DNA of 58,373 nt, counting the filler, from Dugesia japonica (lineage: Eukaryota): assembly GCA_001938525.1 (NCBI GenBank). It is 5 parts of 5 records of this genome, joined end to end, with 100 filler letters (N's around TTAATTAATTAA, not from the genome) between each part and the next. Parts side by side here need not be neighbours in the genome. Positions count along the whole stretch, not along the records: positions 48,936 to 58,373 come from MQRL01585265.1; 4 more parts are not named here. The stretch is one strand, 5' to 3'. Below, piece after piece: positions 39,047 to 50,636 of this stretch (positions are counted from its first letter, which is position 1; each line of letters opens with the position of its first letter). A program made the translations under genes and the position numbers. The notes beneath the pieces were generated by a model. That model had not been told where the DNA came from. It did not search any database and worked only from the letters and a program-made list of their open reading frames with translations.

Positions 39047-41925
39047 AATGTCATGAATTCAGGACTAAGTAAAGATGAAATAATTAATGACGTACTCTCA
39101 AAGAAGGTTAAAAATACAAATTTGAGAGAAAAATTGACAACACGTCCTGATATCAAGATCACGGAAATGAGATCCCTAGCAAAGATTTACAAGGATAAGG
39201 AACATTATCAACGAATCGCCGAAAAGGAAGATATCTGTATGATACAAAAAAAGTTATGCAAATGTAGTGAAACCTTACATAAATAGATTTGAAGAAGATA
39301 GACATAAAATACGTGTAAATAATTTGCCAGTAAAAAGAGTATAAGAGAGGAACACACAACCAGTGATTATGGAAGATAGAACACAGGTGATGAGGCCGAA
39401 ACCGACAGTATCAATGAAATATTTGGCAAGACGTTATTTTAATAGACAGAGAGGATTTCCAAAACCTCTTGAAGAAAAACTCCAAGACGTTATTGATGTG
39501 GAGAACATGGGCATAAACGATACCAATGCTCACTAAAAGACAAATGTTTAATTTGCGGCAAGTCTGGTCATCATTTTAGATCTTGTTTGATTGTACAGGG
39601 TTCGTCTAGTAGAAGGAACACTAAAATTTTGTGTATTCAAGAGGAATTGGACGATTCAAAAGAAGACGATGAGAGCGCGACAGATCATGATGTAGTAATG
39701 GGAAAAAACCAGAACGACTCCATTGCTTACATTTCATCGANNNNNNNNNNNNNNNNNNNNNNNNNNNNNNNNNNNNNNNNNNNNNNNNNNACAGATCATG
39801 ATGTAGTAATGGGAAAAAACCAGAACGACTCCATTGCTTACATTTCATCGATGGAGTCAGTATTGAAAAAGATGAAATAAATTGAAATGATGATGAAAGA
39901 AGAGAGATGTTTGAAATAGAAGATGGGTGAGAGTGGAGTATAGTAGATGTTAATGGAGTAAAGTTAGAGATGTTGTGGGATTCAGGAGCTTCGGCTACAG
40001 TCATGAGTGAGAACTATTGGATTAAAATTGGAAAGCTGTTGTTGTCGATGTGAAATATCAGATTTAATGGAGCATTTAATAAGGACGGAGAAAAACCGTT
40101 GGGTATAGCAGAATTAAGTATACAATGGAACAAGAAAGTCAGGAAAATTAAAGTCATCATAGTTAGACAGATCCACCCCGAATTGATAGACGGTATTGAT
40201 ACAATGCAAAGTTTTGGAGTGAAATTAACAGAAATAAATAACATCGAAAATGAGAGTCTGAAGATAACACATTCTGATAAAGACAGAAAAAATAACGCGT
40301 TGAAGTTGTTTATAGGAATAGATAACAGAAAAATTGTTCAGTTAATCCAGAATTTTGGTGAAATATTCATGGCTTTAAGGTTCGATATTGGGCATACGAG
40401 AAAATTTATACATGAAATTAAAGTTGAAGGAGATCTAATAGTACAGCACCCTAGTAGACAGTCGATGCATTTAGAAAAGAAAATTGAATATATGATTAAA
40501 GAATTAGNAAAGATTGGTGTAATCAGCAAGTGTAATAGTCCTTGGAATTATCCTATGCTATAGTTCCAGAATGTCCTTCGAAACTTCGTTCGTTATTCGG
40601 ACTAAGAAACTACTACAGACATTTCATAAAAGATTATGCAAAGATAGCAGCTCCTTTATATGAAGCAACTTCAGGTTGCAACAAACCGTTAGTTTGGACA
40701 GAAGCATGCCAGAAAAGTTTCAATGCGTTAAAAAACAAGCTATGTTATGCTCCAGTATTAGAATATCCCAGAGAGCATCGGATGTTCATTTTAGACACTG
40801 ATGCTAGTTTTGGGTCTATTGGTGCAGTACTTAGTCATGTAAAGAGGAAAATGAAGAGGTAATATCGTATGGTTCCAAGCATTTGACAGCTCATGAAAAA
40901 GGATAAGGGATGCGTGAGACAATTAATACAAGTATTGATAAATGCGAGATGTGTGCCAAAAGGAAAGTAGTACAGAGTCGTACAAAAGAAACATTTATAC
41001 CGTGGAGAAGCCAAAATTTTTTAGAACATATCATAGTGGACATAGCTTATATGGAACAGAGCAAGTCTGGAAAAAAATATATGGTGATAATGAGTGATCG
41101 TTTTAGCAAACTAGTCAGTTTATCTGCAGTTTCCAAAATGGATGAAGAGACGATTTTTATGATAACTTTGAACAAATGGATATACCGTTTTGGTAAACCG
41201 AAACATATTCTGACTGACAGAAGTATAGTGTTTGAAAGTCAAGTGATGGGAAAGAAACTAGGAAAATTTGGAATTTTACAGGAATTTAGTTCCCCGTATC
41301 AAAACCAGTCTAATAGTTTGGTAGAACGGATGATCCGAACAGTGAGGGGTATGATTACGATATCGATAAAAGGGAAATGTAATGAAAATAATTTGGAGCC
41401 ATTATTACCGAGAGTAGAATTTATTATTAATGCTACAATACAAGAGTCAANAAAATTGTCTCCTTTCGAAATCGTACTTGGTGAAAGATAAATCTGCATA
41501 CCAAAGAGGAAACGCTATCAAAAAAAGGACAGTGAAGAGATAGTGCGGCAGAATTTGGAGAATGCGGCGCAGAAAATGGGAAATTTCGAGAAAGATAAGC
41601 GAGGACAAAAATACTTTAAAGACGGGGAGTGGGTATTAGTCCGAGTAGAACCACACAAACAAAAGAAAAACGGTTTGCTGTATGAAGCCCCCATACCAGA
41701 TAGTGAGATTTGTATCAGCACATCAAGTTGAAATAAAGTTTTCAAATGGTTTGAAAACAAGAAGAATAGAATGGTATAAAAGATGGAAAATGTTTTGAAG
41801 GAGGGGAGAGTTATGGAAATTCGAAATAACGTTGTTTGAAAAATACTAATTAATGTTATAATTTATATTTAATAAAGTTTCTAATCTTAGTTGTTATTGA
41901 AATATGAGGACAAGGATATTGTAAC
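39047..41925 (+). mobile_element. Ty3/Gypsy element, pseudogenised, RT core deleted (gag, PR, RT start, RNase H, integrase, PPT, LTR remnant)
   Basis: Knuckles CGEHGHKRYQC / CLICGKSGHHFRSC; protease MLWDSGASATVMSE; SPWNYP (RT start) joined directly to LRSLFGLRNYYRHFIKDYAKIAAPL; LDTDAS; integrase IVDIA, ILTDRS, SPYQNQSNSLVER; PPT gaaggaggggagag at ~41797-41810. Confidence 0.9.
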
Positions 41926-48835: not shown

Positions 48836-48935
48836 NNNNNNNNNNNNNNNNNNNNNNNNNNNNNNNNNNNNNNNNNNNNTTAATTAATTAANNNNNNNNN
48901 NNNNNNNNNNNNNNNNNNNNNNNNNNNNNNNNNNN
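48836..48935. other. Artificial spacer N44-TTAATTAATTAA-N44
   Basis: Identical 100-bp linker. Confidence 0.95.
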
Positions 48936-49027
48936 GAGTAAATGAAGATAACATGTTTGATGATCCAACATTAGCGATATTACAGAAAATCGGATGCCAG
49001 CTCAAACCAAGAGTTAGAGCTGAGAGA

Positions 49028-49243
49028 ATCATAATTGCGATTAAACCACCACAGGGTAACCGCTTTGAAATATCTATGAAACCATTAGATACAGTGCAAA
49101 ACTTGATTTGTAAACTTCAGTGTCGTGACGTACAGCCAATTCAACGCAGGTATTTTGGACAATTAATGGATCCAAATAAAACATTATTGGAAAGCGGACT
49201 AATCCCAGATTGGCCGAATGAGATAAGACTTGAGTATTCATTA
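49028..49243 (+). pseudogene. Ubiquitin-like domain within the retroelement polyprotein
   Basis: IIIAIKPPQGNRFEISMKPLDTVQNLICKLQ..RRYFGQLMDPNKTLLESGL aligns by eye with ubiquitin [48 protein letters not shown]. Confidence 0.75.
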
Positions 49244-50210
49244 AATTCTACAATGCGTATTGATCAAAACAATGTTTGTTTGGTAATAGAATATGAACCA
49301 AGAGAAATGGAAAAAATGGAAGCATTACCACATCAAATAAAAGATGAATTACAAAAGTTAACTATAGATAATACAACAGTTAAAAAGCTATTGAATTAAG
49401 CTATCATACTAGCTATACCTGTCAATACACTAGCACAATTGATTGATAATATATTACCGATAATGAGTCAGAACACTCCTTATCAAACAGAAATAAAAAT
49501 GCTCGTGCGGAAAAACGGCGAAGCTATTAGACATAATCCATCCAGACAAGGGATTTTGACACTGGACTATACAGGGCTAACAAAATATTATCATTGTTTC
49601 ACTAAAGTTAAAAAGTTAAGGAGAGAAATTCGACATGAAATTAATGATGAAAATATTTACCTGATAATTATACATGAAAGTTTAGTTGATGATGATGGAT
49701 GTTGGATGTCTTCCAGACAGAAAAATAAATGTAGTACTACCAGTAGTACCTGAATTGAGGGGTACATGGCAAATTATGCAGTTACCAGCACTAGTAACAG
49801 AAGAGTCTGAAGAGGAAACTGAACATAATCGAATGGAGATGGATGAATTGAATACACCACCACCTCCCAAAGCAGTAATACCAGCTATACTAGAGCCGAT
49901 TAATCAATTGCATCAAGTAGATTTAGATGTAGACGATGTAATAATTTATGTTGTAGAAGATGTGCCTACACATGAGAAAATGAGACCACCAATTAATAAT
50001 CAAACAAGCACAGTACAAGAAATATCAACACATAATAGACAGACTAACTCTCACGTAAATACAAGACGGAGAGGTAGACCACCTAATTCAGGGTGAATAC
50101 CGCCACCTAAAGATCTATTATCAGAGGAAACATTAATTGCCCCGAGAGCAAGACAAATTGCAGCAGCAGATACAACGTGGAATCAACCACCAGAGGTACC
50201 TATACATCGA

Positions 50211-50636
50211 ATGTCGAGTACAGAAAAGATAACTAATAATTTAGTAAAAGAAATCATGCCAAAGTTACCACTAGATAAAGTGGATTGTGAATATCAACTG
50301 AAAAAATTGATTAAGAGTTGTAGAGATCAACTGTCGACAGTGCAATACGACGATGAAAATATAAGTGCGGTCATACGGCGAGTGTATGAAACAGGTCTAG
50401 ATGAAGCAAAGATATGTAATATTTTTGCTTATTTAATCAAACGAATAAAATATGCTAACGAGAGAAATACTGACTTAGATCACGAGATAGAAATGCTGAG
50501 TGGCATAATCGATCAGTTTGTAGAACCATGGATTGTCACACATGGGCAATGGTCCGAATTTTTAAAATTACAAACAGTGAGAGGTAATAATCAAATACCA
50601 GTAAACAGACCACTAAATTTACAAAACACTATGTAG
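50211..50636 (+). pseudogene. Bcl-2-like domain within the retroelement polyprotein
   Basis: BH1-like VIRRVYETGLDEAKICNIFAY (cf. [21 protein letters not shown]) and BH2-like VEPWIVTHGQWSEF (cf. LEPWIQENGGWDTF) at Bcl-2 spacing; helical character. Confidence 0.7.

Follow-up and report, generated by a model that had tools for sequence, protein, structure and literature searches.

A Bcl-2-like domain without the BH1 tryptophan and glycine in a decayed Burro-like retroelement of Dugesia japonica

Burro1-4 and GYPSM1 are described as giant planarian Ty3/gypsy elements (Grohme 2018 and Jurka 2007, as cited in PMC6431247), and Burro elements were found to hold a SUMO-like domain (PF11976), a BCL2-like motif, a mononegavirus-like envelope and a protease in one reading frame (PMC6431247, section 7). 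The same paper reports decaying Burro fragments with stops and frameshifts in Dugesia japonica and is silent on the BH1 of the BCL2-like motif. Analysis of a stretch of D. japonica DNA of 58,373 nucleotides (assembly GCA_001938525.1; hereafter the window) revealed the presence of a decayed Burro-like fragment with a Bcl-2-like domain, in which the BH1 signature NWGR is replaced by DEAK. A reading of this cargo as new was not borne out, as the BCL2-like cargo of Burro elements is already published; the family-wide BH1 pattern described below is a modest, testable addition. The literature search returned no statement on BH1 and no functional test of the domain; Lee 2026 and Grohme 2018, which lay beyond that search, may discuss it.

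As for Bcl-2-family proteins, the best sequence matches of the domain are A179L (6TZC, 5UA4) and Bcl-xL, which have NWGR, are free-standing and are reported as proven BH3 binders (PMC11209288), whereas the domain has DEAK, shows no BH3 motif and is part of a polyprotein. The loss of the canonical BH1 is shared with the poxvirus proteins M11L and ORFV125, which bind BH3, and A49, which does not, and these two outcomes bracket the options for the domain; all three are free DNA-virus genes with solved structures, and no sequence link from them to the domain was found. Another anti-death cargo of a planarian retroelement, B-IAP of Burro1, is reported to protect stem cells (Lee et al. 2026, as cited in PMC13465017) and, unlike the Bcl-2-like domain, is described as a RING and BIR protein acting on caspases. 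The question raised is therefore whether the Burro-type Bcl-2-like domain is still a BH3 binder or has moved to another job, like some poxvirus Bcl-2 folds, in a family of elements of which another gene is already reported to shield planarian stem cells. The features on which the comparison depends are:

50211..50636, + strand: Bcl-2-like domain, core at about residues 3-123, with premature stops at 50094 and 50634 flanking it
50400..50411, + strand: BH1-site tetrapeptide DEAK, aligned to NWGR
50526..50561, + strand: BH2-like motif PWIVTHGQWSEF, residues 106-117

A full HMMER search, in which the query was the Bcl-2-like domain with the envelope start and stops were represented by X, yielded 51 proteins at E <=0.001. 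The envelope start motif was detected in 29 of these, 17 of which have at least 100 residues ahead of it, and the domain is present in six of the 17 (P0004, P0006, P0009, P0010, P0028 and P0048), in all of which it runs unbroken into the envelope. The DEAK of the window lies within GLDEAKICNIFAY (residues 62-74), and the corresponding tetrapeptides of the six relatives are TDSK, TFTK, SRNK, SEEK, NRDK and DQNR. Neither the BH1 Trp nor the Gly occurs in any of the seven sequences; the first position is a helix-cap residue (D/N/S/T) and the last is Lys or Arg in 7/7, giving the family pattern [D/N/S/T]-x-x-[K/R]-[I/V/L] at pairwise identities of 12-30% (residues 53-120). Because all six relatives are likewise without Trp and Gly, the non-canonical BH1 is, judged from the alignment, a family trait and not decay, although single letters in this copy, such as the Ala of DEAK, may still be decay. 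In the register of the A179L alignment and of the profile alignment to Bcl-xL, Lys or Arg occupies the position of Bcl-xL Arg139 in all seven sequences and Tyr that of Phe146 in six, two positions reported as BH3 contacts in Bcl-xL (PMC3792877). A hydrophobic central helix is conserved across the family alignment. The BH2 pattern W-x5-G-W is recognisable, with the first Trp in 6/7 (Tyr in one), the second Trp in 6/7 and the second Gly in 6/7; the motif had been noted as well conserved, which holds except at Gln113, a residue private to the window where 6/6 relatives carry Gly.

The relationship to Bcl-2 proteins, like the DEAK reading of BH1, stood up to sequence comparison. In a phmmer search of 177,635 PDB sequences the African swine fever virus protein A179L (6tzc, 5ua4) ranks first for the window protein (E 2.9e-4, 24 bits, residues 40-120), in an alignment that places DEAK opposite NWGR without gaps and PWIVTHG opposite PWMISHG; next come designed helical repeats (E 0.04-0.09), and Bcl-xL reaches about E 1. 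The Bcl-2 family PF00452 was matched independently by five of the six relatives (E 0.00089, 0.00096, 0.012, 0.055 and 0.2; 12.7-20.2 bits). A profile built from the six relatives, with the window protein excluded, recovers the latter from 559 targets at E 5.9e-14, against E 0.59 for the best background match. With all seven sequences in the profile there are 99 PDB matches at E <=1, the best 60 of which are all Bcl-xL, A179L or A1/Bfl-1, and the best of these (E 2.2e-4) is the Bcl-xL W137A mutant, a solved structure without the BH1 Trp. The BH1 site, the central helix and BH2 align in register with A179L and Bcl-xL, and BH motifs are in any case not essential for the Bcl-2 fold (PMC3847314). 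The sequence LVKEIM at residues 11-16 fits a BH4 pattern (two aliphatic, two any, aromatic, aliphatic) except at the aromatic position, in a region that aligns poorly among the relatives. A supposed absence of helix 3 was dropped, the profile aligning across helix 3 to Bcl-xL. These comparisons support a Bcl-2 fold by sequence, the structure models being of low confidence, and the domain is very probably the Burro-type Bcl-2-like domain.

As regards function, we consider it an even call that the window holds a dead copy of a Burro-type element in whose active relatives a domain tethered to the endoplasmic reticulum (ER) damps cell death through a remodelled groove; the anti-death mechanism in active elements, taken by itself and judged from sequence, falls a little short of even. 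Under this proposal the envelope would be directed into the lumen of the ER by the internal signal, and everything upstream would stay cytosolic, membrane-tethered after signal cleavage, as expected from topology; the signal-peptide anchoring view rests on general polyprotein topology. The domain would thereby face the cytosol at the ER membrane, the site at which tail-anchored Bcl-2 proteins act. The kept Lys/Arg could still meet the acidic residue in the BH3 helix of host Bak, Bax or a BH3-only protein, as happens in divergent poxvirus Bcl-2 proteins; the ligand range may be narrower or different in a groove remodelled without the usual Trp and Gly, and the producer cell would survive while particles form. 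The distance from BH2 to the envelope start motif is 54 residues in the window and 56-86 in the relatives. In cellular Bcl-2 proteins the basic BH1 residue is reported to pair with the BH3 Asp, and ORFV125, with SPGR instead of NWGR, is reported to bind Puma BH3 still, with about 250-fold lower affinity (PMC9027176); in M11L the Arg-Asp salt bridge is missing and Bak BH3 is bound nonetheless (PMC3847314). A Bak/Bcl-2 mitochondrial pathway is reported to exist in planarians (PMC7022251).

Several observations weigh against this reading, both in its assignment of the fold and in its mechanism. The window protein itself has no PF00452 match in Pfam and no Bcl-2 match in NCBIfam, and no sequence reaches the PF00452 curated cut-off of 31.4 bits. 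Inspection of the 141 residues revealed no BH3 motif (L-x3-[GAS]-D), which is also reported to be absent from some pro-survival Bcl-2 members (PMC7022251). The two models, both built from single sequences, have a predicted local distance difference test score (pLDDT) of just 47.2 and 47.9; they contain six helices in an order fitting a Bcl-2 bundle, and the first was used for fold searches. In a Foldseek search with this model, of the kind proposed earlier as a check, exclusively Bcl-2-family chains were listed against PDB, yet at E >=0.11 and a TM score of about 0.3, possibly driven by sequence. Bcl-2 chains superpose on the first model at a root-mean-square deviation of 9.5-15 A, a wide fold search gave generic bundles with no Bcl-2 chain among the matches listed, and the viral structure library gave nothing under E 0.4. 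Regarding the groove, the BH1 Gly is gone in 7/7 sequences with the central helix repacked, and a larger residue stands at the Ala142 position in 7/7 (at the Phe143 position a small residue is found in 6/7). A BH1 Gly-to-Ala change reportedly eliminates the binding of Beclin BH3 (PMC2807451) as well as anti-apoptotic function (PMC3792877); in one preprint BAD binding is reported as retained after such a change. Regarding the anchor, there is none at the C-terminus before the stop at 50634, where the envelope signal-like segment follows in frame; this segment is borrowed and not the domain's own anchor, because it is present in relatives without the domain too. Eleven of the 17 relatives are without the domain (P0005, P0007, P0011, P0013, P0015, P0016, P0018, P0020, P0030, P0049 and P0052), and it is therefore dispensable and the slot before the envelope variable.

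The main rival to an anti-death groove, possible though rather unlikely in our estimate, is a Bcl-2 fold with a closed or repacked groove that would act on host signalling or ubiquitin pathways as a non-BH3 scaffold, in the manner of vaccinia A49, which is reported to keep the fold without a usable groove and without Bax/Bak binding (PMC4358236). The loss of Trp and Gly in all seven sequences and the residue sizes at the Ala142 and Phe143 positions would suit such a role, as would the ubiquitin-like neighbour here and the MATH/TRAF cargo of Burro (PMC6431247), while all seven, despite identities of 12-30%, retain a basic residue at the Arg139 position, and BH1 and BH2 are still recognisable, unlike those of A49. 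A non-BH3 role had been suggested from the altered groove; it survives as this rival, but the loss of NWGR alone does not imply it, because M11L and ORFV125 are reported to bind BH3 without NWGR. An unlikely alternative is a matrix-like structural role without influence on cell death, in which particles assembling at the ER would use the central helical hairpin to bind membranes: the conserved hydrophobic central helix and the fixed spacing of 54-86 residues before the envelope start motif fit it, and the 11/17 relatives without the domain before their envelope are hard to square with a part in core assembly.

It is very unlikely that the domain is a different helical bundle, for example a capsid-like one whose BH2-like letters arose by chance. 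Five relatives match PF00452 independently, the best 60 of the 99 profile matches are all Bcl-2-family chains, so that profile searches did not favour another fold, and the published annotation agrees with BCL2-like (PMC6431247); no capsid family was detected in Pfam, in NCBIfam or in the domain scans of the relatives. It is highly improbable that this copy was domesticated as a stand-alone soluble host gene of 141 residues: an ATG, a stop and an unbroken frame are present, but a stretch of this length is expected by chance (see below), the copy departs from its relatives at a Gly invariant in 6/6, and every flanking domain is broken. Finally, an origin of DEAK from NWGR through decay after insertion is already refuted for Trp and Gly and has next to no probability, since, although the copy has decayed by about 2-9% per site and a single base separates three of the four codons from one for N, G or R, at least 6/12 bases differ from any coding of NWGR (P <=1.6e-4 at 8% decay) and Trp and Gly are missing in 6/6 relatives too.

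Returning to a Bcl-2-like domain that acts on cell death, it is doubtful, though conceivable, that the family is an ancient retroelement Bcl-2 subfamily of its own, with the distinct BH1 [D/N/S/T]-x-x-[K/R], a borrowed signal peptide as tail anchor and, at the ER, control of host cell death or signalling through a mode of binding that differs from that of cellular Bcl-2. If so, retroelements would have their own equivalent of the poxvirus Bcl-2 radiation, and B-IAP would be joined by a second survival gene.

That the domain is transposon-encoded is supported by its place inside the Burro-like fragment, between a ubiquitin-like domain and the envelope. The other features of the fragment are:

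48937..53680, + strand: decayed Burro-like GAG-ENV-POL Ty3/gypsy internal fragment of about 4.7 kb
48941..49396, + strand: ubiquitin/SUMO-like domain (Pfam PF11976, E 0.037; ubiquitin, a single-domain chain, E 0.0017)
50637..50693, + strand: hydrophobic signal-like envelope segment, in frame after the stop at 50634
50694..52425, + strand: broken gB-type (Monjiviricetes-like) fusion glycoprotein in three frames, with PF24664 matched by five successive pieces (the best at E 2.8e-16)
52921..53211, + strand: retroviral-type aspartyl protease with a degenerate active-site motif (Pfam PF00077, E 1.5e-5)
53290..53670, + strand: post-protease segment, dUTPase-like solely by its position in published Burro elements, with no dUTPase match in Pfam, PDB or NCBIfam

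The domain order (ubiquitin/SUMO-like, linker, Bcl-2-like, signal-like segment, gB-type envelope, aspartyl protease) and the gB-type envelope ahead of pol indicate a Burro-type GAG-ENV-POL Ty3/gypsy element. Set against the published description of Burro1-4 and GYPSM1 rather than Burro sequence, the likeness lies in the order SUMO-like, BCL2-like, envelope and protease, PF11976 being also the family named at the corresponding position in Burro elements (PMC6431247), while Gag, MATH, reverse transcriptase, integrase, long terminal repeats (LTRs) and the BIR and ankyrin cargo are not in the 4.7-kb piece. The fragment is truncated upstream by a gap ending at 48935 and ends at about 53680, stopping before the reverse transcriptase, none of which was found behind it on the + strand; no LTR pair was seen, nor any LTR-like repeat in 30000-58373 or second copy of the element within the window, in which a scan found no tRNA. 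Its GC content is 32-35%, compared with 21-28% upstream and mostly 16-31% across the window. The signal-like segment has the highest hydropathy of its surroundings (2.0 over 11 residues) and a counterpart in the relatives. The linker at 49400-50096 (+ strand), between the ubiquitin-like and Bcl-2-like domains, has an RRRGRPP motif near 50066-50090, which we take to be AT-hook-like; GRP-RK motifs resembling it also precede the envelope in P0007 and P0011.

The envelope type and position are shared with Smed_errantivirus_1-6, gB-type GAG-ENV-POL errantiviruses of Platyhelminthes which are reported as intact in 1 to 215 copies, whereas the window copy is broken (PMC13524379). Over one 62-residue stretch of the envelope, counted by hand, 35/62 residues are identical to Smed_errantivirus_4 and 28/62 to Smed_errantivirus_1, and the other four looked more distant by eye; together with the low GC content this likeness suggests a planarian host. 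The word 'bcl' is absent from the text of PMC13524379 and seven of its supplements.

Regarding the state of this copy, 50211-50636 (+ strand) reads from ATG to TAG in 141 codons with zero internal stops. The ATG most likely served as an internal Met codon in what was once a polyprotein, because the same frame continues into the envelope gene: a single frame at 49686-51326 spans the linker, the Bcl-2-like domain, the signal and the envelope start, with stops at 50094, 50634 and 50832. The domain and the envelope share one frame that is broken here and intact in relatives such as P0009 and P0010, the latter having a CCHC knuckle, a ubiquitin-like domain, the Bcl-2-like domain and the envelope in a single frame. 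Across four in-frame blocks there are 13 stops and 3 frameshifts per 1615 codons (9 stops per 1546 codons when one doubtful stretch is omitted), i.e., one break per 101-129 codons, and the stop density puts substitution since the time of activity at about 2-9% per site. At this break density 141 unbroken codons are expected by chance with P 0.25-0.34, so the open frame, correctly seen in the earlier note, is no sign of selection. There is every likelihood that the copy is non-functional, and the suggestion that it protects host cells was not upheld, as the element around it is broken. By itself the locus is of little importance, because the cargo is known and the copy very likely dead; what carries over is the family pattern, in which seven sequences, 12-30% identical, have dropped the BH1 Trp and Gly yet kept the basic residue.

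Four of the six predicted domain-carrying proteins begin at or inside the domain and may for that reason themselves be broken upstream. An envelope tree of 18 rows (17 of the 51 matches and the window, P0028 and P0048 being omitted as too short) was poorly supported (4/15 branches) and did not order gains and losses or single versus repeated capture of the domain. Word-indexed protein searches were blank for P0001 (77-247 and 248-2000 residues) and for the domain with the envelope start (204-651 residues), a viral scan with the envelope piece gave no locus, and an atlas search gave no usable match. A metagenome locus was rejected as a chance 24-residue match in a stop-broken frame otherwise unlike the domain. 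Behind the envelope, two to four tandem aspartyl-protease domains are present in P0005, P0006, P0007 and P0011.

Elsewhere in the window, decayed Ty3/gypsy-like fragments were detected at 39497-41491 (+ strand; zinc knuckle and integrase) and about 55500-57000 (- strand; RNase H and integrase), whose integrases are 34% identical and have no match to the Burro-like fragment. TRAF-like gene pieces at 21399-22013 and 25106-26143 (+ strand), comprising a RING and a TRAF zinc finger followed by two MATH domains in tandem in a frame of 345 codons, are probably a host gene; no link was seen between them and the Burro-like element 23 kb away, though Burro carries MATH cargo. Just behind the element, a protein kinase N-terminal lobe at 54819-55145 (+ strand; PF00069, E 1.9e-12) with splice-like edges is probably a host exon.
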